From an uncultured Alphaproteobacteria bacterium (lineage in GTDB: Bacteria > Pseudomonadota > Alphaproteobacteria > Rhizobiales > Rhizobiaceae): a stretch of 64,000 bases of DNA. The stretch's first letter is position 1. Each line of letters opens with the position of its first letter. The notes beneath the pieces are model-generated. The model did not search any database and was not told where the DNA came from. It saw nothing but the letters and a program-made list of their open reading frames with translations. The stretch covers positions 574,013 through 638,012 of the forward strand of contig CAVWVG010000004.1 of assembly GCA_963758355.1 (NCBI GenBank). Direction: 5' to 3'. Both the position numbers and the translations under genes were made by a program. Shown here piece by piece: positions 41,755 to 59,036 of this stretch.

Positions 41755-42999
41755 TCAGATGGGATCGCGCGCGATGGGACAGGACATGCAGTGGCTGCCG
41801 CCGCGGCCGCGTCCGAGTTCGGATCCCTCGATGGTGATGACTTCAACCCCGGCTCGGCGCAGCAGCGTATTGGTGTAGACGTTACGGTCGTAGCCGATGA
41901 CGACGCCGGGCTCGATGGCGAGAAGATTGTTGCCGTCATCCCATTGCTCGCGTTCGGCCTCGTAGCTGTTGCCGCCGGTAGCGATGACGCGCATCCGGTC
42001 GAGGTCCGAGCGCCTCCTGAACCACTTCGAGGAAGGGTTTGTTCTCAGGCGTGATCTCAACCCCCGAGACCCCGGCACCCGGACGCAGCGAAAAAGCACG
42101 AATGCGTTCGACGACTGGCGGATAGACGGTGACGAGATCGCGATTGCAGAAGGTGAAGATGGTGTCGAGATGCATGAATGAACGGTCACGCGGCATGAGC
42201 GCAGCGATGACGCGTGCAACACTACCCTTTGCGAACAGGCGCGCCGCCAGCGAAGCCACGGCCTGCGGTGTCGTGCGCTCACCCATCCCGATGAGGACGA
42301 CACCGTTCTCGACGGGCATGACATCTCCGCCCTCAAGCGTAGCTATGCCGGTAGATCCGTCCGAACCGTCCCACCAGGTTTCGAATCCGGCGTCGCGGAA
42401 ACGCGGGTGAAAACGATAGACCGCGGCGACATTGGCCGCCTCCGGACGCCGGGCCGGCCAGTACATCGGATTGACCGTGACCCCGCCGTGGACCCAGCAC
42501 GAACTGTCGCGGGTGAAGAGCTGGTTGGGTAGCGGCGGCAGCACGAAATCCTGCGGCTCCATAGTCCGGCCGACAAGACTCCGTGGGCAGCGAATGGCAA
42601 CTCGGCGCGGGCGATGCCGCCGATCATGAAGCGGCCAAGCTCGATCGCCGGCATCTCGTCGAGCCAACCGCGCATCTCACCGACCATGTCCTCGCCAACG
42701 GCCGCGGCGCTGATCCGTCGGTCGAGAAGCCATTTTCGCGCTTCTTGAAGGGCGAGCGTTTCGCCGAGCAGAGTGCCGAAATCGAAGACAGCGACGCCGC
42801 GCTCGCGCAGCGCGTCGACGAACATGTCATGTTCCTGGCGTGCCTTCTTCACCCACAGCACGTCGTCGAAGAGCAACGCTTTGCAATTGTCCGGGGTCAG
42901 TCGCTGAAGACTAAGGTCAGGACGGTGAACCACCACTTCCCGGAGTTGGCCGACTTCGGAATAGGTGCCGAGCCGCGTCTTGGCTGCTGGCGCGTTCAT
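41755..42999 (-). pseudogene. arcA: Arginine deiminase, two frameshifts (about 42580 and about 42000)
   Basis: MNAPAAKTRLGTYSEVGQLREVVVHRPD... / ...LPNQLFTRDSSCWVHGGVTVNPM... / ...[32 protein letters not shown]...[12 protein letters not shown], in three frames. Confidence 0.85.
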
Positions 43000-46137: not shown

Positions 46138-47391
46138 TCAGCTTGTTCGGCCGCGTCCAGATCGGATGGGAGATGGCGCTCCGAAACGCCGCGCCTGTTC
46201 TGCCCATGAACCGGGGATTTCGGCTTCCATCAAACGCGCGAGCGTGAGGCCCGGCGGCTGACGACCTCCGAGAATGGCCTGCTGCAGGTCGGGCGCCAGG
46301 AAAGCGAGGCGAACGAGCCGACGGCGCCGGAGTGTGTCCGGCGCCGATCGGAGACCGGGCATGCCAGAGCGATCAATTTCAGCCATGGCGTGGGCGGTGC
46401 GCAAGGCCTTGATCAACGTCGGGTCAGGGCGAGACGCGGATTCGACCCCGCCCGTCACATGCGTGCGCCCGCCGCGCGTGTGCATGGAGATCGGCAGCAT
46501 CAGACGAAGCTGACCTGGGTCTGCGTGATCGGGCTCGGCCTTCTCTCCATTCGCTAGTTGCCGCCGGATCGCGTTGAGATGACGGATCGGCATCAGGATC
46601 TCGACATGGTCGGCGTGGGCTTCGACGCGCGATGGCAAACTGAGCGGCTCGCTCTGCCGGCTATTCGTCAATCGCCGGAGGATTTCCGAGAGCCGACTTT
46701 CGAGCGCTGCGGCCGGCACGCGCCGAACGATGTTGTCGCCACTCCCTGATCTTCGGCGCCCTTGCTGCAGGGGAGCGGACACATAATAGCGATAGAGTTT
46801 TCCTGCCTTGCCGTATGCTGAGGCTGGCGACATCGGTTCACCGTCGGCATCGAATATCCGGCCGGCCAAAGGTGCTCGTGCGACCTTGTTCCGGCTCTGC
46901 GCATGACGACGAACATTGGCATCGAGTTGTTGCTGGGCCGCGTCGAAGACTTCGGGGTCGATGATGGCAGGATGCATGCCGGGATGGGCCTTGTACCTGT
47001 GAACGATCATGCCGAGATAGGTGCGATTGCGCAGCAGGTGGAACAGGGCACCCCGGCTGAAGGGCATGCCTCCCAGGACCCTTCCCTTTTTCGTTACCCG
47101 CCGCTTCGAGCGGATACCGCGCTCGTCCAGCCAACGTTCCAGCGCGTGAACCGAGCGAAGTTCGAGATAGGCGCGGAAGATTGTCCGTACGGTCTCGGCC
47201 TCTTCCTCATTGACGACGAGTGCACGCAATCCGTCCGTCGGCGGGTCGTAGCCGAGCGGCAGCATTCCACCCATCCACATCCCTCTGGCCTTGGAAGCGG
47301 CGATCTTGTCGCGAATGCGTTCGCCGGTAACCGCGAGAACCCGGTCTTTAGCGATGGCGGCTTGAATTTCCTGGGGGCTCATTTTTGGCAT
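46138..47391 (-). pseudogene. Large serine recombinase lacking the N-terminal catalytic domain
   Basis: From VTGERIRDKIAASKARGMWMGG onward it is collinear with and highly similar to the 5793-7406 protein. The first roughly 170 aa, including the catalytic serine region, are replaced by the unrelated MPKMSPQEIQAAIAKDRVLA. Confidence 0.85.
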
Positions 47392-47465
47392 GTCGCCAGC
47401 CTACCACGGGCACGCCGACAAGGTATCAATGTGGGCCGGGGTTGAACCCAGCCGGATGGCCTGCT

Positions 47466-47610
47466 GCCGGCATTTCGGACACGAGGTTAAGCTAATATAG
47501 CTCGTTCCTCGAACTCCACGGGGCTCAGATAGCCCAGCGTCGAGTGGCGGCGCCTCTAATTGTAGAAGCGTTCGATGTAGTCGAACACATCCGCCCTGGC
47601 GTCCCTCGTC
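47466..47610 (-). pseudogene. IS3-family transposase 3' remnant with an internal stop
   Basis: My translation: TRDARADVFDYIERFYN*RRRHSTLGYLSPVEFEERAILA*. It begins abruptly at 47610, directly abutting the stop of the lipoprotein gene. Confidence 0.75.
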
Positions 47611-49347
47611 CTAGAGATCGGGTCGAACGGTAGCCGACAACGTGCCTTCTGCAAGTGCCCAAAGGTGGATTGCGTCGTCAGCAATCCAGATGTCCTTTGG
47701 GGTAAGTCTGGAAATAGTCCCGTTTAACTCGAGTTCAACACTTTTTTGCTGGAAGTTAGTCACCCCCGTTTTAACCTCCTGCAATGGCCCGGCGTAGTGA
47801 AACCTCAGCTTGTCTTCGATTATCTGCTCGAGCGAGCGCCCGTCGAACCAGGCAGCAGTCTTGAGCAAAACGCGCGTGGAATCGCCATCAAACCTTACGT
47901 CGGCGACACGAACTTCCTGCGCATCGAGATCAAGATAGGGTCGAGCCGTTAGATAGACGCTTCCCTCCACCCCCAGGGAGGGGCGCGTCGCAAAGGTTAG
48001 CCCGATGACTATACGCTGCCCGCTCTGATAAAACTCTACCTCGCTGACGGTCAGCGGCGCCGCCGGATATCTTTCGTCGAGGAACTTCACAATTTCCGCA
48101 TGAGCAAGGTTACTAGCAGGCTTGAGTTCTACCTTACCTTCGACTGATAGCGAAAAGCTGCTCGCGATGTCATTTGCAAGCACGATGGGTAGCGTTTCCT
48201 GGCCAGCAGGAGGCTTGGAGCCGAAGACGATTGCAGGCCGGGCTGCAACGCGCAACGCTAGGGCGAGCTTGTTGTCTTGGGCTTGGCCGCTGCCGACAAA
48301 CTGCGAGAGCGCAACCTGCTCGACATGCGTGGCAATCCATAAGTCAGATCCCATGGCGATTGGTTGCGCCGCGAGCTTCGAGATCTCGGCTACCCTGTCG
48401 GAGAACTGAAGCTTATCGCCAATCCCCTGCTTGAGTTGCTTGTTGACGATAGAAAGAAGGGCCGTTTCGACGGCTTTACTCAATATTTCTTTCTGAATGT
48501 AGAGCGAAATGTCGAAGAGCCCGGCATCCAGCAGTTCCACGGCGCCGGGCAGGCAGATCTTTTTGATGTCCAAACCAAATTCCTTTGCTTTAACATTGAT
48601 GGCCGGGGACGGCAGGATTTCGGTTCCAACGACTGCCGTAACGTGTGTGGTCACGTCACAGGCCAGAGCGCCCTTCACCGTCACATCAGCTCCAAGAAGT
48701 CCCTGCTTGACGTCTACCGAAACCTCTACCCGTAGATCTCCCGCGACCTTAATGTCGCTGCCTTGCGCGTCGATGTCGACAGATGTCAGGAAAACCTTGT
48801 GATTGATCCAGATCGTGGTCGGAGAAAGCTTCTCTTTCAGCTCGATGAACGGCTGTATCTCCGATTGAACTACCTCTTTGACCTCAGGCCAACATTCGGT
48901 AGCGTCCTTGAGGCAAGGCACGTAAACGGTTTCCACGATCGTCTCGAAACACTTGCCCGGCTTGTGAAAAATATTCGTGATGCAATTCTTGGCTACATTT
49001 TTCACAATGTTCTGAGGGCATTGCGCAGCGACCTGTTTGGTCAGGCAGCCGGCAGCCTTGAAAGGAGTAACGACCCTGTCGACGACCATGTCCTTCACAG
49101 ATTTTTCTTCGACCAGCAACTTCGCGTTGATCTCTCCGCTGCGGCCGGCGGTCAGCGGAGTTGATTGATATTTTGCCATCATGTTGGCTTCGACGTCGGC
49201 TGTGTTTACCGAGATGTCGACCCCGATGTTCGACTGAGGGATGGATACCGTGCGCTGGCTGTCGTTGTCTCGCGGAGGCGCCTCAGCGTTCCAATCGTCG
49301 CACCCTGCAAGTGTTAGTGTCACCAAAAGTAATAGCAGATATTTCAT
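47611..49347 (-). CDS. Large Cys-containing lipoprotein of unknown function
   Basis: MKYLLLLLVTLTLAGC lipobox, GGGGGA SD before ATG 49347, 578 aa. N-terminal third has a Cys cluster (CLTKQVAAQCPQNIVKNVAKNCITNIFHKPGKCFETIVETVYVPCLKDATEC). AT-richer than its surroundings. Confidence 0.75.
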   Translation of the reverse strand: MKYLLLLLVTLTLAGCDDWNAEAPPRDNDSQRTVSIPQSNIGVDISVNTADVEANMMAKYQSTPLTAGRSGEINAKLLVEEKSVKDMVVDRVVTPFKAAGCLTKQVAAQCPQNIVKNVAKNCITNIFHKPGKCFETIVETVYVPCLKDATECWPEVKEVVQSEIQPFIELKEKLSPTTIWINHKVFLTSVDIDAQGSDIKVAGDLRVEVSVDVKQGLLGADVTVKGALACDVTTHVTAVVGTEILPSPAINVKAKEFGLDIKKICLPGAVELLDAGLFDISLYIQKEILSKAVETALLSIVNKQLKQGIGDKLQFSDRVAEISKLAAQPIAMGSDLWIATHVEQVALSQFVGSGQAQDNKLALALRVAARPAIVFGSKPPAGQETLPIVLANDIASSFSLSVEGKVELKPASNLAHAEIVKFLDERYPAAPLTVSEVEFYQSGQRIVIGLTFATRPSLGVEGSVYLTARPYLDLDAQEVRVADVRFDGDSTRVLLKTAAWFDGRSLEQIIEDKLRFHYAGPLQEVKTGVTNFQQKSVELELNGTISRLTPKDIWIADDAIHLWALAEGTLSATVRPDL

Positions 49348-49424
49348 GTACTGATCCCCCACGATCTAGTCTTGTCTGTGACGTGCTCCCCGATTTGCGG
49401 AGGCAAACCAAACAACTGAGAGGT

Positions 49425-49453
49425 GGGGGCGGAGTGTTGGTTGTTCCGCCCCC
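49425..49453 (-). terminator. Strong hairpin after the second peptide gene (terminator or attenuator)
   Basis: GGGGGCGGA-N11-TCCGCCCCC, a perfect 9-bp GC stem. On the coding (minus) strand it is followed by ACCTCTCAGTTGTTTGGTTTG (moderately U-rich). Confidence 0.55.
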
Positions 49454-49490
49454 TGTTGTCCGGTCAACGGCTGGTTAGGCCGTCAGTTCT

Positions 49491-49637
49491 TCAGCAAGCG
49501 GCGAGACAGATCGACCGGGCCGGTTCGGGGAGCCGGTTGCAAAGTATCTCGCAGAGTCCCGAAGGGGTAACCCCGCCGGAGATCTTAGTTGGCGTCGCCG
49601 TCCGCTGAACGGCGCTGGCCTGAGTTGGCATTTTCAT
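49491..49637 (-). CDS. Cys-rich precursor-like peptide B (48 aa)
   Basis: MKMPTQASAVQRTATPTKISGGVTPSGLCEILCNRLPEPARSICLAAC. GAGAGGA SD 7 nt before ATG 49637. Its leader is paralogous to that of peptide A. Confidence 0.6.
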   Translation of the reverse strand: MKMPTQASAVQRTATPTKISGGVTPSGLCEILCNRLPEPARSICLAAC

Positions 49638-49730
49638 CTTGGAGTCCTCTCTGATCTGCTGGCCCGGGACGCACAGCAATGAAGTGTCTGCACCTACGTC
49701 CGCCCCCGCAGCGGTGTGCAGCCCGTTGTT

Positions 49731-49946
49731 TCAGAAGCAATCGATGCAGCCGGACGCGCCAATTCCTGCGAGGCACTCAACGCAGGCTGTCCCCAAGGAT
49801 CCGACGCAGACGGCGCCGCAGGCTATGATCGCGGTTCCGCACGCGATCTTCTTCAAGACATTGCAGCCTGATGGCTCTATTGAGTCTTCGTCCGGAGCCT
49901 GACTTGCATTTCGGAGTACGGGCAGAGCTTGAACGGGCATCATCAT
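49731..49946 (-). CDS. Cys-rich precursor-like peptide A (71 aa)
   Basis: Verified codon by codon: MMMPVQALPVLRNASQAPDEDSIEPSGCNVLKKIACGTAIIACGAVCVGSLGTACVECLAGIGASGCIDCF. AAGGAGAG SD. Starts 79 bp after the protease gene. Confidence 0.65.
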   Translation of the reverse strand: MMMPVQALPVLRNASQAPDEDSIEPSGCNVLKKIACGTAIIACGAVCVGSLGTACVECLAGIGASGCIDCF

Positions 49947-50024
49947 TACAGTCTCTCCTTGTTGAAGCTGGATCGGAATGCGGCCAGCAGTTGGTGATCA
50001 TCAGAAATCGAAGCGAATTCGGGC

Positions 50025-51937
50025 TTACACGCGCTTGGTCCAGCTCCGGACCGTTCCAACGGTGACCGGAATTACCTCGCTAACATCGATGGTGAACCGA
50101 AACACACGGTTCGCCATGTTCATGTTGTTCGGTTGGAAGAACGACAATTCGACGTCATAGCATTCGGAGTTGATCCTGCAGATCGGACTCTTCTTGACCT
50201 CGATGGTGTCGAGCTCGAGCTGATGCTGCGTGGAGACCCGCACGACGTCGACAATCTGAACCGCGTTCGTGGCAGAGTAATTCAGCGCGCGATCCTCGCC
50301 GGTGATCCCGAGATTGCGCAGATCGTAATAAATTCGATTGAGGAAGTTACCGAGCCCGCCGGCGAGCGCGTCGAAGCTCTTTTGAGCCTCGGCTGCCTTC
50401 GGACGCGGACCGAGCACATGGCTGACAAGAGCCGGCGTCGCCCAGCTGAACATGCCGCGCATAGAAGGCACGATCACCGGGACCACCTGGCCCGACTGTA
50501 GTCGCACGCTGCCGCCGATCACACCCGGAACCGAGATCAACTCCACACCGTCGGTCAATTGCCCTTTCAACAGGCTCACTATCCGCCCATAGCCCGCAGA
50601 TGCGAATGGTCCGACAGGCTGAATGGCGTAGATCGGGGTGACATCGACATTCAGCGTCCAGATCACGGACCCTGCTTCAGATGGATTTGCATCCAAATAG
50701 GAAAGCAGCTGCTCAGGAATTGGGGATTGTTGATCCCGACCGGCATGGCCTGGGTGAACGAGTTGCGACGCGCTTCAGATCCGAAGTCGTACCCAAGTTT
50801 CCCGAGCGCGTAGACGAACGGCAGTTTCTGCGCAACCTTCTCGCCCCCGCACCCGCAGCCGGATTTCTTTTCGCCACCTCCGCAACCACAACCGCCATCG
50901 GACGGAGTGAGGTCGGACATCGCGATGCCGGATATCTCCGCGGGACCGCTCGGCATCGGACTTCCGGTGCCGCCGTCTCCTTTGATTTCAGATGCGGTAA
51001 AACCGGCTTCGCTCATTGAATGATTTTCAACTTCGCTCATGCTCATAACTCCCTTCTGGATGTGATCAATGGCACCCTGGACGTTGATTCGGCCTGCGAG
51101 TATTCTCGAGCACTCCTCAACGCCAGACGGAATGCAGGGAATTGCGGAATGCAGCAGCGCTTCGCCGACCGCGCGCGGATCCGGCGACCGTCCAACCTTG
51201 ATCTGACTGCTTAGTAGAAGTGCGGCGAGCCCGGACACCAGCGGGGTCGCAAAGCTCGTTCCGCTCTTTCGCGCCATGCCGCCTTGCAAGGCAGCGCCCA
51301 GTATGTCGGATCCTGGCGCGAGGATGCCCTGATTGCGATACGTCGAGCCGTAGTTGCTGGACGGCAGCGGTTGACACTTGTCGTCCATGGCGCCGACGGC
51401 CAGCACAGAAGCGACGGCTGCGGGAATGTGCAGACACTCGCAGCCGTCGTTGCCGGCGGCCGCGACGATCAGGACATTCTGCCTAATGCAGCTATCGATC
51501 GCCTGTGCCAGTATCGGATGCGGTTCCCCGGACTTTGCTAGCTGGCCGCCGCTGATATTTATGACGTGTGCGCCGTTCTCGACCGCGAGCAGAATGGCGC
51601 GCGCCAAGTCGAGTTGCGAACATTTCAGGCTGTCGTCGCCGAAAACCGGGACGATCAAACCACCACAGAATGGCGCAATGCCCTCTATCGAACTGCCTAG
51701 CTGCCCAAAAATCAGGCTGGCAACGTGGGTCCCGTGCTCCGTGGCGCCGCCGTCGGCCGAAGTTACGCTGGCAACCGTTTTCAACGGCGTCAAACGAGCG
51801 CCGCGAAAGCAATCATGCGTGAGGTCCACGGGACCATCGAGCACGGCAATCGTAACGTTCGGATCGCCGCCTCCGAGCGCAATCAGAACATCCTGACGAA
51901 ATACTGCAGCCGTTCTGCCAACCATTACACTCTCCAT
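50025..51937 (-). pseudogene. PatA/PatG-family (cyanobactin-type) S8 subtilase with C-terminal PatA/G DUF. One -1 frameshift as assembled; may be intact in reality
   Basis: Catalytic triad contexts VLDGPVDLTHDCF / EHGTHVASLIFGQ / SGTSFATPLVSGLAALLLS. Linker contains GGCGCGGGEKKSGCGCGG. DUF signature is FVYALGKLGYDFGSEARRNSF ... (frame change at the GGGG run 50722-50725) ... QLLSYLDANPSEAGSVIWTLNVDVTPIYAIQP. Likely start at M5 (51925), behind GGAGAG. Confidence 0.8.
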
Positions 51938-51970
51938 CGCCGCACGCAGAGCAACGCGCCAGCCATGCCT

Positions 51971-52234
51971 TCATCTGCTTTTGCAAACTATCCAGCAAAC
52001 CGCTTCGCACTGGGGCCCAGCGCCTCTGCGCCGGCATTCTCGGATACAGCGAGAGCAGGACGAGACGGATGCCGGCCTCTCGGCTCGCATTGGCGTCATG
52101 CGCGCCGCCGGCTTGATGATCGGCTGGAGGTCGGCTGCCATCGCAGATAACGGCAGCAGCACGCCAGCCCCGCTGACGCCGGTAGCCCACAACGCAAGCG
52201 CAATCATGAAAATCCGTTTTCGAAACACGAGCAT
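51971..52234 (-). CDS. Small secreted Cys-rich protein (87 aa precursor)
   Basis: Sec-type signal MLVFRKRIFMIALALWATGVSGAGVLLPLSAMA|ADL. The C-terminus SSCSRCIRECRRRGAGPQCEAVCWIVCKSR has six Cys. GAGG SD. Sits immediately upstream of the protease gene. Confidence 0.5.
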   Translation of the reverse strand: MLVFRKRIFMIALALWATGVSGAGVLLPLSAMAADLQPIIKPAARMTPMRAERPASVSSCSRCIRECRRRGAGPQCEAVCWIVCKSR

Positions 52235-52244
52235 GATCCTGCCT

Positions 52245-52478
52245 CTATTCCGCGCCGGATGTCCGGCCTATCTGTCGACCGCCAACGCTGCCCGGGAATC
52301 GGGAAACGAACGTTGCCTCGACGCCCCCGGCGACGACATCCTGACGTTCTGATAGCGCTTGCTGTCGGTCTGTTGGTGCGGCTGGCCGGGCGCGAGATTG
52401 ACAACCTTTGCGCACGCCCGAGTGGGGGCCCGCGCTCATCGCGCAAACTGCCCATCCGAGCACAACAAGTCTGTTCAT
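52245..52478 (-). CDS. Small hypothetical protein with a signal-like N-terminus (77 aa)
   Basis: MNRLVVLGWAVCAMSAGPHSG...; AGGGA before the ATG; first ORF of the minus-strand cluster. No family recognised. Confidence 0.25.
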   Translation of the reverse strand: MNRLVVLGWAVCAMSAGPHSGVRKGCQSRARPAAPTDRQQALSERQDVVAGGVEATFVSRFPGSVGGRQIGRTSGAE

Positions 52479-52637
52479 GCGGTATCCCTAGTTGCGAGCG
52501 CCGATGAATTTCGGTTGGGCACACCATTCCGCGGCGACGTTCGCAATTTGCGAACAAAGGGTTCAGGTCATGAGAAAAAAACGTGATCGAGTTGTGAAAA
52601 CTGGTATGTTCGCTTTGGGCGGGAGGACGAAATAAGT

Positions 52638-54410
52638 GTGATGGCCGCGGTTAAGCAGTTCACGATGGGTCTATTCGGGCCCTTTCGACTTCTGAAACCC
52701 GGGGGTGAGCGCATAGAGATCCCCAGCAAAAAAGGAGTTGCGGTGGTTGCAATGCTCGCCATGGCAAAGGACGGCGAGCGCGCACGCGGTTGGCTGCAGG
52801 AAAAGCTATGGGGACAGCGGCAGCAAGCCGAAGCGCGCGGAAGCCTGCGTCGCGAACTTTCGAACCTTCGAAAACTGCTCAACCAAGACAGTGCAGCGCT
52901 TCTCGTTTGCGAACACGACCGCGTTCAGCTCGACCTCAAGCTGATCAACATCGATGCACGGAGCAGCCGCGATCACCCGCTGGCCTGCGAGTTTCTTGAA
53001 GGCTTGGACATTCCGGGCGAAGATGGATTCGAAGACTGGTTGCGAGACCAACGGGCTGCTCTGGCCCTGGAAGTGCGGCCTGCGGCGGTGATGCCAGGCA
53101 AGAAACCCGGTGATTCCAGAGAGATCGTTTCGTCGCTGCCAAGCCACATCGTCGATACAACAGAGCCGCCAGCCGGCTTTGACGGTAACCCGGCGCTCGC
53201 CGTCATGCCGTTCTCTAACGCGACTGGCGAAAGCGAACATAACTATCTCGCGGAAGGCATCAGCGAGGAAATTATCGATCGTCTGTCGCGGATCCGCTGG
53301 CTGCCTGTTATCGCGCGCAGCATGAGTTTCTCATTGTCCGATGTTTCCAACAGAAGAATCGTCAGCAAGAATTTGGGAGCGAAATATCTTCTCGAGGGCC
53401 GTCTGCGCCGCGAGCAAACAGGATATGGGATCGCCGCCAGCTTGATCGACGGGCCGAGCGGCCACACCCTGATGTCGCAGCGATTTGCCATAGACTCCCT
53501 GATTTCGCGGAATTCGTTTGAAGAATTCATGACCGAACTTGTCGCTCATCTCGAAGCACGGATCGATCACACCGAACAGGTCTGGACGCGCAGCAAGCGC
53601 CGGGACAGCCTCACCGTGAAGGACCTGATCTGGCGCGGCCGCTGGCACCTCAACAGACTGACCCGGGCCGACGCCAAGATAGCGCAGAAACTCTTTGCCG
53701 AAGCTCGCGCGCTCGATCCAGATTCGTCGGAGGCCCTCATCCAATCGACGTTTGCATTGGGCTGGGCAATCTGGGCCGGCCGCCAGCCGACCGAACGCAT
53801 AGCTGAAATGAAAAAGCTGGCCCAGGATGCGATCTACGCGGACCGGGACGACGGCCGCGGCTATATGCTGGCCGGTATCGCGGAGATGTGGCTGCGTCAT
53901 CCGATAGCCGCCAGAAGACTGTTGCAACAGGCGATCGAACTCAACCCGAGCCTTGCACTGGCAAGGGCGCATCTTGGTGGGAGCTGCAACCTTTCGGGCG
54001 AGCCAAGCGAGGCTATTTCGCATCTCAAGGCCGCACTGCGCCTCAGCTCAAATGACTCGCATACCTTTTATTCGCTTGCGGAACTGGCGCTTGCGTTCTG
54101 CATGCTCGGATTGTGGGATGAGGCGATCGAGCACGCCGATCACTCTCTCGCCCGCCGCCCGGCGTATTGGTACGCCCACGTCATCAAGATCAACGCCATG
54201 GCCAGGAAGGGCGAACTTTCCGCTGCGCGCCGTGCGCTGGACGAATTGCTGTCGGTGAAGCCGAATTTTTCACGGCGATACGTTGAATGGCTTCCGTTCG
54301 TGGACCGAACCTGGATCGGTCATTTCATGGCGGGCCTGAACATGGTCCCGGGCTACAGCATTGATCTTCCACCAGGAGACGATCAGGAGTTCCCCAGGGA
54401 GTTGAACTGA
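52638..54410 (+). CDS. SARP/BTAD-like winged-helix transcriptional regulator with a TolB-N-like middle and a TPR C-terminus
   Basis: LFGPFRLLKPGGERIEIPSKKGVAVVAMLAMA...RGWLQEKLWG...ARGSLRRELSNLRKLL (BTAD pattern). NPALAVMPFSNATGESEHNYLAEGISEEIIDRLSRI. TPR-like C-terminal repeats. Confidence 0.75.
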   Translation: MMAAVKQFTMGLFGPFRLLKPGGERIEIPSKKGVAVVAMLAMAKDGERARGWLQEKLWGQRQQAEARGSLRRELSNLRKLLNQDSAALLVCEHDRVQLDLKLINIDARSSRDHPLACEFLEGLDIPGEDGFEDWLRDQRAALALEVRPAAVMPGKKPGDSREIVSSLPSHIVDTTEPPAGFDGNPALAVMPFSNATGESEHNYLAEGISEEIIDRLSRIRWLPVIARSMSFSLSDVSNRRIVSKNLGAKYLLEGRLRREQTGYGIAASLIDGPSGHTLMSQRFAIDSLISRNSFEEFMTELVAHLEARIDHTEQVWTRSKRRDSLTVKDLIWRGRWHLNRLTRADAKIAQKLFAEARALDPDSSEALIQSTFALGWAIWAGRQPTERIAEMKKLAQDAIYADRDDGRGYMLAGIAEMWLRHPIAARRLLQQAIELNPSLALARAHLGGSCNLSGEPSEAISHLKAALRLSSNDSHTFYSLAELALAFCMLGLWDEAIEHADHSLARRPAYWYAHVIKINAMARKGELSAARRALDELLSVKPNFSRRYVEWLPFVDRTWIGHFMAGLNMVPGYSIDLPPGDDQEFPRELN

Positions 54411-54446: not shown

Positions 54447-57400
54447 ATGTTGACGCTGAAATATTACGCCGCGATCAAAGGAGCTCAGCACAAGACAGAA
54501 GCCGACCCGCCCGACGCTATCCTGCCTTTCGACTTCGACAAACTCGGAGCAGATAGCTGGCGCCGACGCGCATTTATCTGGCTGACCGGCTGGCTGTTTC
54601 CTGTAGTGCTCGCGTTGTTTCGTGCGATCTGGCCCAATCCGAAATTCTGGCGTCTCATTATCGTGACGCGCGCCACCGACGTTCGCGACGTCCTGATGAG
54701 GACTGCCGACTTCGAGGTGCCCTATCGTCTCGAGATGACCGAACTCGCCGGAGGAGAAAAATTCGTTCTGGGCATGGAAGGCTCCGGTCACGACCAACAG
54801 AACCAACACATTCGAACCGTTATGCCGGCCAGCGACGCCCAGGTGGTCATCGACTTGAGTCATCGATTTGCGAACGCCCTGATCAGAACGTCAGGCGGCC
54901 GCATCGACGTGATGAAGGACTTCATCACTCGGATCGCCACCGAAACCTGTGCCGCCTATTTCGGACTACAGCTGGAAGATCCCGACGCTTTTGCAGAATG
55001 GACGATGTCGATCTCTGCTCTGCTGTTCGCCGATCCCTTCGGCGACGCCGCCACGCGGGAGTTGGCTCTGAATGGCGCGGCTCGTGTGCGCGCCGTCATA
55101 GACCATTCGATCGCGAATGCGGCAAGTCTGCCGCCAAACACCGTCCTTGGCCGGTTGATCGGTCTCAAGGCAACGGACCAGACTCTAACGGACAAGAAGA
55201 TCGGCGCCATCCTGGTCGGATTGGCAACCGGATTTATTCCGACGAATACGCTCGCCGCCGGAAAGATTTTGCAGGAACTGCTACGCCGTCCGAAACTCCT
55301 GCGCGATGCCATCGGCAAAGCACGTAACGCCAGCCGGATTGACGGCGAAAATCGAATGACTGGCAGAAACGAGAACCCTGACAAGCAGGCGCTTCAGGCA
55401 ATCCTTCTTGAGGCTGCGCGCGTTAACCCCGCTCTAGCCCCCGGACAATGGCGCTACGCCAGACAGGACGCTGTCATCGCGCCCGACACCTGGCGACAGC
55501 GAAAGGTACCGAAGGGCTCGGTGCTGATGGTCGCGACCATGTCGGCATTGCGGGAAAAGTCTAACGGCGCCAAACCCGATACGGACCTTATGTTCGGCGA
55601 CGGCATCCACGCATGTCTGGGCAAGTACATCGCGATGGCCCAGATCACCGAAGTGTTTACTATCCTGCTTTCACAAATCAATCTGCGCTTCAGCGAGGAT
55701 ACCTGGGGCAGCCGCATCAGATGGGTTGGCCCGTTCCCCCGCCGGCTCGACATGACGTTTGATCCGGCTGTCTCGCCCAGCACCCAAGCCATGATCACGA
55801 TCTGCGCCCCCCTTGTCGTCGGCGAGGGAGAGGACCCTGCCAAGAAGGCGCAGGACATTCAGAGGAAGATTGCGGAGCTGAAAAATCCGGCGAACGCCCA
55901 GATGCGGGAGACGTTCGACAAGACCGGCATCGTCCACTTCGCTTCGCTCTCGCTGGTCGAGGCAGGCGATGCCAAGAGCCCGGCGCCGCATCTGCTGTTT
56001 GAACTGAATGTCGATGGTTCCGGCGAAACGGCGTTTCAGCTAATCGCCAATGCAGATATCGAAGTGGCCGATGGCAAACTCCATTCGATATTCCGGAACA
56101 CGCTCAAGAGCAACGCAGGCCTTGCCGATATCCTCAGCAGCTACGTCCTCGAATTGAAAACCCGTCCGTGGGGCCCGATCGGCCTTAACTTTAACGGTAC
56201 GCCGGAGTTTTCCGTTCCCGACATTGCGATGCAGGAATTGCTGTCGAAATTCGCCAAGCAGACCCTTAATTTCTATATGAGTTTTCACTCCGGTTTCGGT
56301 AATCGCGCAATGGAGGCGCTGAAGTTCATCCGCATATTCTTACGCAATCCCTCCGCATACCAAGCCGTTCTAAAGGACCCCAGATACGATAGTGCGGAAT
56401 TGCGGGAGATGATCGATGTGGCACCAAAACTAGTGGATTACCTTATCGTTCCAAGCAGGCGGCAGCTCAAAATCTCTGCCTGGAAGGATTGCAGCCGTAA
56501 GGAGGCGATTTTCAAGTTCGTGCAGACTTGGAATTTCTGGTGCTTCGCCCTCCCTGTGATCATGGTCGCTTTTCTGTTTGGACTCGCGATCTTCTTCGCG
56601 ACGGCGACGTCAGCGATCATTTTGCTTGGCCTTGCGGGCCGAATCACGCTCGCCGTCATCGGCGGTCCCGCGATGGTGCTGATTTTGCTGGCACTTGTCG
56701 TCACTGTTTTCGTGGCCTTGCTTCGACACCACGAGATCCGCGACATTCCGGACGATCAGAATCCGAATCTCGAGCATGTCCGCGAGATCAGCGGCATCGA
56801 AAACGCGCCCGGGTTCGCGCAAAATCATTTTATGGCCGTTACAGAATTGAAGGGCGGATGGTTCAGGAAGGTGACGCTTGCGTTGTCCCTGTGGGGCATC
56901 AAGCAAATGGTGCTGTTTCTATTCCGCCCCGGCTTCGTCCTCAACATGGGGACCATTCATTACGCGAAATGGTTTCGAATACCGGGTCGCGACAAATTGA
57001 TCTTCCAGGCCAACTACGACGGTAGCTGGGAAAGCTACCTGGAGGATTTCATTATGAAGGCCCACCAGGGCCAGACCGCAGCCTGGGGCAACGGCGTCGG
57101 CTTTCCCCGCACCAGTTACCTGATTAATAACGGCGCCCAGGATGGCGACCGATTTAAGCGCTGGGTACGCCGCCAACAGGTCATCGCGCACTTCTGGTAC
57201 AGCCGCTTTCCCCACCTAACGGCTGATCAGATCCGCAACAACGCGCTGATCCATGACGGACTGGCGCGGGCGGCGACCGGCTCGGCCGCTCGCGCCTGGC
57301 TCGACTGCTTTAGCTCTATCCCTCGCCCGGACTACGCCATCGAGAGCGATGAGGTTCAGTCACTGGTGTTCCGGGGCCAGCGGTCACTGCCTTGCTCGAT

Positions 57401-59036
57401 CTGCGCCCTGATCCATTTGCCCGGTACCAAGCAAGCTCGCATCAAATGGCTTGAAAAACTCGAATATGGCAGCGCGTCGCGGCATGGTAGCATCCAACTG
57501 CGGGAACGGGACAAATCCTGCGAAATCACATTTGGTGACCATCCCTCTAACGGCGAGCGCGAGCGGAACCATGCCACGTTCGTCGCCTTTAGCGCGGCCG
57601 GACTGCACAAGCTCGGCCTCGCCGATCCGACCAAGCAGGACGGACTGGGTACGTTTCCCAACACGTTCAATCTCGGGATGGCCAACCGCGGCCGCAGCCT
57701 TGGCGATTTCGGAGAGACCGCGTCGGCTGAGTGGCGCTGGACAGACGCGGCCATTAAAATAGGTGGCCCCGCGGCCGTCGATGCCGTGCTGCTGATATGC
57801 GCCGGTAGTTCCGAAGCGTGCAGGGAGGCTCTCGGCAAGCATCTCGAATTGCTCGGGCCTGGCGCCTTGGCTCATGAGATCCCGACCCAGCCCCCGACCC
57901 AGATCCTAGGCTACGATGACGAAGGGCGCGCCGTCATCAAGACGCTACCCGACGAGACCAGCAAAACCGGTCGCCGTCCGGTCGCTGGCTATGCCAAGGC
58001 AAGCACAACGGCTAAGATCGATCCCGTCGAATACGAGCATTTCGGGTTTCGCGACGGCATTTCCCAGCCGGTGATCCGGGGAACCCAGCGGTTCTCGAAA
58101 GGTGCCCGCAAGCGCGACATTGTTGAGCCCGGCGAATTCATTCTCGGATACCGCAACAATCAGGGATACTATCCGCCGACCGCGACCGTACGTGCTGAAT
58201 CGGATTCGAAGCTGCATCTTCCGATCGTGCTTGCCGATGTTCCAAGCCGATTCCCCTCGTATGGAGGGGGCAATGCCGCCGCGCGCGATTTCGGCCGAAA
58301 TGGAAGCTTCCTCGTCATCCGGCAACTTGAGCAGAATGTCGAAGGATTCAAGGATTTCGTCGAGGCAAAGGCCTCGGAGCTGCGGCGCGAGTATGAAGGC
58401 CTTACCGAAGCTGCGGGCGCGCCCATCACCGCGCAATGGGTCGCCGCTAAGATGTTGGGTCGGTGGCCTGACGGCGCGCCGCTGGTCGACCGTCCCAGCG
58501 CGAACAGTGGTGGCTATCTACAAAAGCACGAACAAAGCGATAACAACTTTACCTTTGGTGCAGACGATCCACAGGGCCTGCTTTGTCCATTTGGCGCCCA
58601 CATTCGCCGTGCCAACCCGCGCGACAGCATGCAGCCGGACGATCCCTCACAGCAGCCGATCACCAATCGCCATCGGCTCCTGCGGCGTGGCAGAACTTAC
58701 GAATACGAGCCCAAGAAAGACGGCAGGATCGAAAAGGGCCTGTTGTTCATCTGCCTCTGCGCCGATCTGGATCGGCAGTACGAATTCGTCCAACAAACCT
58801 GGATTCAATCGCCTTCATTTCACGGCCTGAAAGACGAGCCCGACCCGATGGTGGCTTGCCCGGACCCCGGCAAATCCCGCGTCTTTACAATTCCAACACC
58901 GGCGGGACCGGTCAGGATACGCAACATGAAGACCTTTGTGACCGTCCGCGCAGGCGGCTACTTCTTCCTGCCGAGCCGTTCGGCCATCCGGTATCTGGTG
59001 GACATCAACCAGGCTGAGCACACGCTACGAACATGA
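54447..59036 (+). CDS. 1529-aa fusion: N-terminal cytochrome P450, two middle regions of unknown function on either side of a 3-TM cluster, and a C-terminal DyP-type peroxidase
   Basis: P450: ExxR (LEAARVNP) and heme-thiolate loop FGDGIHACLGKYIA (about 55593-55634). TM cluster FWCFALPVIMVAFLFGLAIFFATATSAIILLGLAGRITLAVIGGPAMVLILLALVVTVFVALL (about 56535-56720). DyP: EHFGFRDGISQPVIRG (GxxDG, about 58035) and PFGAHIRRANPRD (proximal His, about 58590). One uninterrupted ORF; GAGG SD. Confidence 0.85.
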   Translation: MLTLKYYAAIKGAQHKTEADPPDAILPFDFDKLGADSWRRRAFIWLTGWLFPVVLALFRAIWPNPKFWRLIIVTRATDVRDVLMRTADFEVPYRLEMTELAGGEKFVLGMEGSGHDQQNQHIRTVMPASDAQVVIDLSHRFANALIRTSGGRIDVMKDFITRIATETCAAYFGLQLEDPDAFAEWTMSISALLFADPFGDAATRELALNGAARVRAVIDHSIANAASLPPNTVLGRLIGLKATDQTLTDKKIGAILVGLATGFIPTNTLAAGKILQELLRRPKLLRDAIGKARNASRIDGENRMTGRNENPDKQALQAILLEAARVNPALAPGQWRYARQDAVIAPDTWRQRKVPKGSVLMVATMSALREKSNGAKPDTDLMFGDGIHACLGKYIAMAQITEVFTILLSQINLRFSEDTWGSRIRWVGPFPRRLDMTFDPAVSPSTQAMITICAPLVVGEGEDPAKKAQDIQRKIAELKNPANAQMRETFDKTGIVHFASLSLVEAGDAKSPAPHLLFELNVDGSGETAFQLIANADIEVADGKLHSIFRNTLKSNAGLADILSSYVLELKTRPWGPIGLNFNGTPEFSVPDIAMQELLSKFAKQTLNFYMSFHSGFGNRAMEALKFIRIFLRNPSAYQAVLKDPRYDSAELREMIDVAPKLVDYLIVPSRRQLKISAWKDCSRKEAIFKFVQTWNFWCFALPVIMVAFLFGLAIFFATATSAIILLGLAGRITLAVIGGPAMVLILLALVVTVFVALLRHHEIRDIPDDQNPNLEHVREISGIENAPGFAQNHFMAVTELKGGWFRKVTLALSLWGIKQMVLFLFRPGFVLNMGTIHYAKWFRIPGRDKLIFQANYDGSWESYLEDFIMKAHQGQTAAWGNGVGFPRTSYLINNGAQDGDRFKRWVRRQQVIAHFWYSRFPHLTADQIRNNALIHDGLARAATGSAARAWLDCFSSIPRPDYAIESDEVQSLVFRGQRSLPCSICALIHLPGTKQARIKWLEKLEYGSASRHGSIQLRERDKSCEITFGDHPSNGERERNHATFVAFSAAGLHKLGLADPTKQDGLGTFPNTFNLGMANRGRSLGDFGETASAEWRWTDAAIKIGGPAAVDAVLLICAGSSEACREALGKHLELLGPGALAHEIPTQPPTQILGYDDEGRAVIKTLPDETSKTGRRPVAGYAKASTTAKIDPVEYEHFGFRDGISQPVIRGTQRFSKGARKRDIVEPGEFILGYRNNQGYYPPTATVRAESDSKLHLPIVLADVPSRFPSYGGGNAAARDFGRNGSFLVIRQLEQNVEGFKDFVEAKASELRREYEGLTEAAGAPITAQWVAAKMLGRWPDGAPLVDRPSANSGGYLQKHEQSDNNFTFGADDPQGLLCPFGAHIRRANPRDSMQPDDPSQQPITNRHRLLRRGRTYEYEPKKDGRIEKGLLFICLCADLDRQYEFVQQTWIQSPSFHGLKDEPDPMVACPDPGKSRVFTIPTPAGPVRIRNMKTFVTVRAGGYFFLPSRSAIRYLVDINQAEHTLRT

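Follow-up and report, generated by a model that had tools for sequence, protein, structure and literature searches.

A PatA-type protease gene followed by Cys-rich precursor peptide genes in an alphaproteobacterial genome: a probable minimal module related to cyanobactin pathways

Results

The locus and its protease

A 64-kb stretch of DNA (hereafter, the window) from an uncultured alphaproteobacterium of the Rhizobiaceae (contig CAVWVG010000004.1, positions 574,013 to 638,012) had been reported in a preliminary description to carry an orphan operon, in which a subtilase of the PatA/PatG type known from cyanobactin maturation is accompanied by genes for short Cys-rich peptides. Over 49.4-52.3 kb, the minus strand holds the gene for an 87-aa protein, a subtilase gene split into two open reading frames (ORFs), the genes for two precursor peptides, A and B, and a hairpin, in this order; the coordinates in the window are collected in Table 1. 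The relatives used for comparison were an Afipia locus (L001, 87% identical), the metagenomic loci L081-83 (L081 is 86% identical) and the locus of Bradyrhizobium ontarionense CP088156 (L084).

When the two subtilase ORFs were compared with Pfam, Peptidase_S8 (E 3e-33) and the start of PatG_D were found in the upstream ORF, and the rest of PatG_D together with PatG_C (E 1.3e-36) in the downstream one. On the NCBIfam model TIGR03895 the unrepaired ORFs score 366.1 and 303.8 bits, each under the curated cutoff of 421.05 bits, and the repaired protein of 637 aa, searched as a single chain as the preliminary description had proposed, reaches 682 bits, so that its assignment as an S8 subtilase with a PatA/PatG C-terminal domain holds. 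The catalytic domain matches the PatA/PagA structures 4h6v, 3zxx and 4h6w with 336, 335 and 333 bits and about 60% identity, versus 159 bits with the PatG/PagG macrocyclase structures 4h6x and 4aks, and the C-terminal part matches 4uvq, the structure of the domain of unknown function (DUF) of PatG, with 221 bits. Because the PatA/PagA scores are far higher than those for PatG/PagG, the enzyme is, as judged from its sequence, a PatA-type leader protease. The catalytic triad D34 (AVLDGPVD), H68 (HGTHVAS) and S228 (GTSFATP) is invariant among 16 aligned homologues, the protein lacks a signal peptide, and a Cys/Gly-rich linker joins its catalytic domain to the C-terminal PatG_D/PatG_C domains.

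The frame is broken by the loss of one G between 50721 and 50720, where the window reads CCCCA-ATT and L081 and L001 read CC(C/T)CAGATT. This 1-nt deletion puts the C-terminal domain out of frame, and the TIGR03895 protease is thus not encoded in one continuous reading frame here. Of the C-terminal domain, only about 26 residues remain, behind the catalytic domain and the linker, in the upstream ORF, which ends at 50663. A public gene call (P0016, 420 aa) matches this upstream part with 100% identity, so the frameshift is present in the deposited assembly. An arginine deiminase gene (41936-42999, minus strand) is likewise split into overlapping ORFs, which match Pfam ADI over positions 2-75 and 104-298; this second frameshift, less than 10 kb from that of the protease, points either to an indel-prone assembly or to a decaying region. 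The protease product in this genome would at best be the catalytic domain alone. As PatA's and PatG's catalytic domains are reported to be active on their own (PMC4259220), processing may persist despite the frameshift, although the locus may equally be inactive.

Precursor peptides A and B

Both peptide genes are preceded, at a distance of 7-8 nt, by strong Shine-Dalgarno sites (AAGGAG and AGAGAGGA), as described earlier. The leader of peptide A comprises residues 1-26 (MMMPVQALPVLRNASQAPDEDSIEPS, 49869-49946) and is followed up to the stop codon by a core with 8 Cys (GCNVLKK…GCIDCF, 49734-49868), which measures 45 aa and not the 44 aa given previously. In peptide B the leader again spans residues 1-26 (MKMPTQASAVQRTATPTKISGGVTPS), and the core (GLCEILCNRLPEPARSICLAAC) has the 22 aa and 4 Cys formerly assigned to it, spaced C-x3-C-x10-C-x3-C and running to the stop codon. 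Both leaders start with the box M-x-(L/M)-P-x-Q-x-x-(P/A)-V-x-R and end in the motif (I/V)-x-P-S, namely SIEPS↓GC in peptide A and GVTPS↓GLC in peptide B (arrow, predicted cleavage). PatA-like enzymes reportedly cut after G(L/V)E(A/P)S (PMC10885120). Since the cores end at the stop codon, a macrocyclase would find no recognition element at the C-terminus, in agreement with the reported lack of an AYDG-type signal.

The two genes are conserved and show the codon-position bias of coding DNA. Compared with L081, differences in peptide A are distributed 3/4/16 over the three codon positions, with 13 synonymous and 7 non-synonymous changed codons, and those in peptide B 1/2/11, with 9 synonymous and 4 non-synonymous ones. 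Homologues of peptide A form 65 clusters in a collection of 5.8 billion proteins, nearly all of them 71 aa long, and all of them without a name or a Pfam domain; the family as a whole comprises 105 clusters at 50% identity. Its alignment consists of the conserved N-terminal box, a variable spacer, and then (V/I)-x-P-S-(G/D) with the core, in which all 8 Cys are invariant. For nineteen peptide A homologues the length of the longest contig equals that of a protease homologue, and these pairs therefore probably lie on the same contigs. Peptide B is conserved in L081-83 and L084, yet gene finders do not call it, and its relatives in many loci have 6-Cys cores (…ALPEPARSLCLLACDNTVC). In these relatives (L084 12025-12174, L081-83) an ORF on the opposite strand is called in its place, and a 12-Cys peptide after the protease of Gloeocapsa PCC 7428 (L085 6906-7169) is missing from the plasmid gene table.

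The core of peptide A is very hydrophobic. In its AlphaFold2 model, residues 30-49 form a helix that is followed by a turn and a second helix (53-64), with a pLDDT of about 83 for the core. Foldseek found no match of this model in the PDB, and the peptide A profile gave only an insignificant match among PDB sequences, acanthaporin (E 0.58). Neither peptide matched anything at E <= 1 in NCBIfam or Pfam, where PatB and PatE controls were positive. By its Cys spacing the core of peptide B may be a disulfide-stapled CX3C-Xn-CX3C hairpin of the alpha-hairpinin-like kind, and peptide A is modelled as a two-helix hairpin without a PDB match. The 8-Cys core is also found at the C-terminus of proteins with a signal peptide (P0263, P0286).

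Recurrence of the protease-peptide pairing

At E <= 1e-20, 3620 homologues of the protease were found, canonical ones included. A scan with one genome per species gave 80 loci, to which looking up exact proteins and consulting plasmid records added others. When the proteases were arranged by neighbour joining, one nested clade comprised the canonical cyanobactin PatA proteins, which are those with PatB, PatE and PatD nearby. Without these neighbours are 43 non-canonical loci, the window counted, and in 40 of them one to five short ORFs with the leader box lie directly 3' of the protease gene. The peptides are Cys-rich in 38 of the 43. As for the three exceptions, two lie on contigs that end less than 200 nt from the protease and the third has a variant box. 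Neighbourhood mining, which had been proposed as a check, hence returned the expected short Cys-rich ORFs, and the operon cannot be called an orphan, being part of a large conserved family.

The hosts are mostly non-cyanobacterial and belong to the Alpha-, Beta- and Gammaproteobacteria, Acidobacteria and Planctomycetes, together with some Cyanobacteria. They include Afipia, Bradyrhizobium, Mesorhizobium, Phenylobacterium, Janthinobacterium, Undibacterium, a metagenome-assembled genome of the Alteromonadaceae, Bryobacteraceae, Planctomycetaceae and the cyanobacteria Calothrix, Okeania and Gloeocapsa. Across the non-canonical loci no flanking gene is conserved beyond the protease and the peptides, and no metal-resistance or metal-uptake genes are conserved nearby.

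A recognisable site was present in 62 unique peptides, which come from related loci. Counted backwards from the predicted cut, P5 is G in half of them (31/62), P4 is V, I or L in 60 and P2 is P or A in 55; the first Cys mostly follows 1-3 residues past the site, and the Cys count of the predicted core is even in 59 of the 62. Several core families recur: the 8-Cys GC…GCIDC(F/V) type to which peptide A belongs, DCCGAG(R/K)CC…CVPNIGQC, the GIAC..C…TVC type, to which peptide B is related as a 4-Cys form, and a 6-Cys family with the spacing C-x2-C-x3-C-x8-C-x3-C-x3-C.

The linker of the protease deserves a separate description. At 50800-50900 of the window (…SDLTPSDGGCGCGGGEKKSGCGCGG…) and generally in the non-canonical clade (compared over L001-L045) it reads (I/V)xPS(D/G/E)CGCG(C)GG…CGCGG, which copies the substrate cleavage motif and adds CXC repeats behind it, and most canonical PatA linkers have …ASQAPSEL… in place of this copy. 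Proteobacterial linkers and those of the split sister system described below resemble the substrate site; in Streptomyces the resemblance is less clear. Judged from its sequence, the motif copy may serve in autoprocessing, as a pseudo-substrate or as a redox motif.

A split sister system

About one third of the homologues of the peptide A core have a different leader, M..LPGFTAExSL…(V/I)VPQ↓GC. These peptides sit after a stand-alone homologue of the PatA/PatG DUF of about 270-310 aa, which is itself preceded by a separate S8 protease of about 300 aa. The arrangement was found in metagenome contigs (L089-L102; e.g. L098 675-2938, L092 3-1510), which also contain a small LPGF(I/V)(T/A)DE…PCGGC ORF. 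Its cores are Cys-rich and include both the 8-Cys core of peptide A and a CS-alpha/beta defensin (GFGCPDDYPCHQHC…), which matches BmKDfsin3 (PDB 5xa6) with E 1.2e-8 and plectasin with 2.8e-4. The alignment sets in with residue 1 of the mature defensins, and this coincides precisely with the predicted cleavage site. Because a core of the sister system is a defensin, an antimicrobial role of the family is plausible by analogy; for peptides A and B it is unproven. The leader strings of the sister system had no match in the openly searchable literature.

Comparison with cyanobactin components and other known systems

The 64-kb window was searched by tblastn with canonical cyanobactin proteins. A PatD query (itself 274 bits on TIGR03604) found no match, which bears out the reported absence of a YcaO heterocyclase; a PatG-type query found the single protease locus only, so that no second protease of this type turned up, and no methyltransferase homologue was present in the window. 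PatE-type precursor models (TIGR03678, PF19155) gave no match at E <= 1, with a canonical PatE control at E 1.5e-20. Likewise, the peptides of the window did not match the PatB model TIGR04220, with a PatB control at E 3e-40; PatC was not searched separately.

With the cyanobactin pathways (pat, tru, ten, acy) the module shares a protease about 60% identical to the PatA catalytic domain and with the same C-terminal domain, and with their precursors the LPxQxxPVxR box at the N-terminus and a G(L/V)x(A/P)S-type site before the core. The box is in register with the PatE leaders (hhalign, P 4.7e-4). The module differs from cyanobactin clusters in having no PatG macrocyclase, no PatD YcaO (optional in the class), no PatF and no PatB. 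Unlike in PatE, the leaders have no LAELSEE, there is no C-terminal AYDG-type signal, and each precursor carries one core; these cores are 20-74 aa long, not hypervariable but conserved, and rich in Cys, with even counts.

The box of the peptide A family is closer still to PatB, whose first 17 residues it matches with 87% probability and E 4e-6 (hhalign). PatB/AcyB/McaB proteins (TIGR04220) resemble the peptides in their position directly 3' of the protease gene and in having the same box from Met1, but differ in their conserved …HGANYNDP… body and in lacking an (I/V)xPS site and a Cys-rich core. PatB has been described as non-essential and of unknown role (PMC4663559, PMC4259220). In the canonical loci (L025, L034-L080; e.g. 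L046 10173-10385) the proteins of this family begin with M(R/K)LP(K/L)(Q/L)S(P/A)PVKRP.

The S8 peptidases of class I lanthipeptide systems, NisP and ElxP, also are subtilases that remove an N-terminal leader at a short motif (PMC10885120). However, their S8 subfamily is another one, without the PatG-type C-terminal domain, their substrates are lanthionine-modified, and neither LanB nor LanC is found at this locus. Bacterial cis-defensins and actifensins are comparable in being small gene-encoded peptides with 4-8 Cys, and the 87-aa protein has a Sec signal like theirs; the survey of bacterial cis-defensins selected precursors with signal peptides only (PMC11561630). Peptides A and B, by contrast, have a non-Sec leader and a dedicated cytoplasmic protease, and their cores are predicted helical hairpins that match neither defensins nor a solved structure.

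The 87-aa protein

The first gene of the operon within the Afipia/Bradyrhizobium clade codes for the 87-aa protein, which always lies directly 5' of the protease and is conserved in L001 (71%), L081-83 (59%) and L084 (40%). As the preliminary description had it, this is a candidate secreted protein with 6 Cys: a signal-like hydrophobic N-terminal segment ending …LSAMA↓ADLQ precedes a C-terminal domain with the spacing C-x2-C-x3-C-x8-C-x3-C-x3-C. It shares this spacing and weak similarity (E 0.005) with leader-type peptides 3' of the protease in Mesorhizobium-type loci. A word-indexed search for a wider family returned one homologue only.

Boundaries of the unit and neighbouring genes

Nucleotide similarity to L081-83 spans 59015 to 49421 and ends just beyond the hairpin. 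The hairpin that had been noted is well supported, with a 9-bp G+C stem (GGGGGCGGA/UCCGCCCCC), a minimum free energy of -38.5 kcal/mol and z = -3.69 (0/200 shuffles equally stable), and probably is the terminator that ends the operon. The block common to the relatives thus stops about 1.8 kb short of the fragment of an insertion sequence (IS) of the IS3 type. Since the lipoprotein gene and the IS3/recombinase remnants lie outside this block, the IS did not truncate the unit; a cyanobactin cluster truncated by the IS was ruled out by this boundary and the absent YcaO. The Cys-rich lipoprotein listed earlier is real, with its LAGC lipobox and DUF4403, but its gene falls beyond the span first given for the cluster (49491-52478) and is syntenic with the module in no relative, and we rejected it as a member of the cluster. 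The 77-aa ORF, also listed before, was discarded as a gene: it has no tblastn match even in L001, and it falls inside the interval that separates the 87-aa gene from the regulator, in a stretch of about 200 nt (52289-52490) that cannot be aligned to L001, where about 86 nt are found instead.

Table 1. Features of the locus, with positions in the window
Feature	Positions	Strand	Remarks
87-aa protein	51971-52234	minus	Sec-type signal peptide (predicted) and 6 Cys
PatA-type S8 protease	50025-51937	minus	frame broken; ORFs 50663-51937 and 50025-50696, overlapping
Precursor peptide A gene	49731-49946	minus	71 aa, 8 Cys
Spacer between peptide genes	49638-49730	minus	93 nt
Precursor peptide B gene	49491-49637	minus	48 aa counted from ATG, 4 Cys
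Hairpin, probable terminator at operon end	49406-49465	minus	stem at 49425-49453
Tetratricopeptide-repeat (TPR) regulator	52638-54410	plus	divergent from operon
1529-aa P450/DyP-like protein	54447-59036	plus	same orientation as regulator
DUF4403 lipoprotein	47611-49362	minus	LAGC lipobox; outside unit
IS3 transposase fragment and serine recombinase remnants	46138-47684		downstream of module
77-aa ORF	52245-52478	minus	mechanical ORF only

The spacer between the two peptide genes is better conserved than the flanking coding DNA, with about 95% identity to L081, and is largely invariant in B. ontarionense, where it lies directly 3' of the protease gene. Within it lie a palindrome, CTGCA-N25-TGCAG, and the Shine-Dalgarno site from which peptide B would be translated. 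A structured RNA was ruled out as no significant fold was found (z = 0.34), and the spacer may be an operator or an internal promoter. A scan of the operon for sigma-70 promoters found no sites.

The divergent regulator has TPR repeats and an N-terminal region resembling regulators of the HilA/CadC type; it is syntenic in L001 and L081-83, absent from other clades, and may be an activator of the operon. The 1529-aa protein beside it shows a weak P450 match at the N-terminus, a hydrophobic middle part and weak matches to DyP peroxidases at the C-terminus. In L081-83 both it and the regulator keep synteny with the operon (75-78% nucleotide identity); the 1529-aa protein is absent from all other clades with the protease-peptide module, B. 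ontarionense included.

Discussion

A minimal leader protease module

We consider it likely that the operon is a minimal module related to cyanobactin pathways, consisting of one leader protease and its precursor peptides and releasing linear, disulfide-stapled peptides. What the analysis shows is the type of the protease, the motifs of leader and cleavage site, that the genes are conserved and that other cyanobactin genes are absent; cleavage itself, disulfides, export and biological activity are inferred. The cytoplasmic PatA-type subtilase would cut after the Ser of (I/V)-x-P-S and free a 45-aa peptide with 8 Cys and a 22-aa peptide with 4 Cys, whose C-termini would be the natural ends of translation. 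With such C-termini no macrocyclisation is expected and, as no YcaO is present, no heterocyclisation either. Each core would adopt a disulfide-held helical hairpin and would work outside the cytoplasm, an antimicrobial or membrane-active role being the most plausible; in this clade a third, related 6-Cys core, that of the 87-aa protein, would be delivered by a Sec signal peptide. Even Cys counts, the AlphaFold2 hairpin of peptide A and the CX3C-X10-CX3C spacing of peptide B suggest the disulfides, while the occurrence of the 8-Cys core behind signal peptides, the Sec signal of the 87-aa paralogue and the defensin core of the sister system point to extracytoplasmic action. In its outline, a leader-protease-dependent system of Cys-rich peptides outside a cyanobactin context, the preliminary description is upheld by the PatA-type protease, the site, the box and their recurrence.

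Several points weigh against this proposal. No transporter, thiol oxidoreductase or Dsb gene is conserved near the non-canonical loci, so that export and oxidation of a peptide cleaved in the cytoplasm are left unexplained. PatG's C-terminal domain did not bind PatE in vitro (PMC4259220). The neighbour-joining tree was midpoint-rooted, and the pattern used in the search for cleavage sites fixed P1 and restricted P2 and P4. In addition, the P450/DyP-like giant protein, syntenic within the clade, could add modifications, and with its frameshifted protease the copy in this genome may be dead.

Alternative explanations

Indeed, there is an appreciable, if less than even, chance that the module in this genome is a decaying pseudogene cluster without current function, which would be compatible with the minimal module as an explanation for the family. 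The deletion truncates the protease before its C-terminal domain, the public 420-aa gene call is identical to the upstream part, and the setting is one of mobile elements. Nevertheless, the 87-aa gene is intact, as are both peptide genes and the catalytic domain, isolated PatA/PatG catalytic domains are reported to be active (PMC4259220), and the second frameshifted gene in the window could mean that the assembly contains errors.

It seems improbable that the peptides are true RiPPs (peptides made on the ribosome and modified after translation) with further modifications such as cross-links or oxidations, introduced by enzymes encoded elsewhere or by the 1529-aa protein of the clade, with PatA-type cleavage as the last step. 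P450s are known to modify RiPPs, and the giant protein with its weak P450 and DyP matches keeps synteny with the operon, alongside the regulator, in L081-83. It is missing, however, in all other clades with the module, among them B. ontarionense, and the cores are strongly conserved and resemble folded domains with even Cys counts.

We regard as highly improbable a third alternative, in which the peptides stay reduced in the cytoplasm and bind metals in the manner of metallothioneins or chalkophores. A protease without a signal peptide, the lack of an exporter conserved nearby and the paired CxxC and CxxxC motifs of the cores would fit it. However, the peptide A core is very hydrophobic and is also fused behind signal peptides, the related 6-Cys core of the operon has a Sec signal, the sister system makes a defensin, and metal-resistance or metal-uptake genes are not conserved near the loci.

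Lastly, a full cyanobactin cluster that lost genes through the nearby IS3/recombinase event, put forward earlier as a stump cut by IS3 at 47610, is scarcely credible: the IS3 fragment and serine recombinase at 46138-47684 and the frameshifted protease might suggest it, but the part alike in the relatives stops with the hairpin (about 49421), leaving 1.8 kb up to the IS fragment, the same minimal gene set without extra enzymes is present in relatives whose protease is intact, the peptides end at a stop codon and lack LAELSEE and AYDG-type elements, canonical PatA falls in a separate clade, and the window contains no YcaO.

Relation to cyanobactin pathways and novelty

Beyond the minimal module itself, we offer a broader and somewhat doubtful speculation, the parts of which stand together. 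The combination of protease, DUF and leader box could be an old maturation system for disulfide-rich mini-proteins that spans phyla, and the cyanobactin pathway a derived cyanobacterial offshoot of it. PatB would then be a relic or a regulatory member of the same class of tagged peptides, the DUF, or protease and DUF together, would read the N-terminal box, and the (I/V)xPS-DCGCG linker would serve as a pseudo-substrate, an autoprocessing site or a folding aid of the CXC type. The split sister system would mature the same 8-Cys core as well as bacterial CS-alpha/beta defensins.

Searches of the openly searchable full texts turned up no account of the peptides or of modules with PatA only; subscription-only papers were outside the scope. 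A single line that notes an uncharacterised 'cyanobactin peptidase' in Roseomonas oryzae (PMC8776678) is the only mention that we found. What is new is therefore that the Cys-rich products are conserved and undescribed and that the remaining cyanobactin machinery is missing, the protease family and the logic of leader removal being already known. Genome-mining tools now flag non-cyanobacterial 'cyanobactin' proteases without naming a product, and many leader-box peptide genes are missed by annotation. If cleavage and folding were confirmed, thousands of such protease hits would gain a concrete class of substrates, and several new families of disulfide-rich peptides from soil- and plant-associated bacteria (Bradyrhizobium, Mesorhizobium, Janthinobacterium) would become candidate antimicrobials or competition factors. 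Confirmation would also provide a simple two-gene system for making leader-tagged Cys-rich peptides and a testable entry to the roles of PatB and of the PatA/PatG C-terminal domain.

Mobile elements and Streptomyces plasmids

The module seems to travel on mobile elements. In PLSDB the protease was found on no proteobacterial plasmid, the matches being cyanobacterial and Streptomyces plasmids. After the module, the closest relatives have a relaxase/DUF3363 gene (L081 12318-14423) in place of the recombinase and IS3 remnants.

The same layout, with the protease followed by peptides, was found on two linear plasmids of Streptomyces (L087 2319-6448, L088 3950-8493). Here, a divergent BTAD regulator is accompanied by a PatA-like S8 protein of 860-920 aa with the DUF and by arrays of three to six short ORFs. 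The cores of these ORFs are mostly short, amphipathic and free of Cys (e.g. ANLFDIIKSLF), and their leaders have the form (L/M)PxQxPP(V/I)xR…GVEA(D/A).

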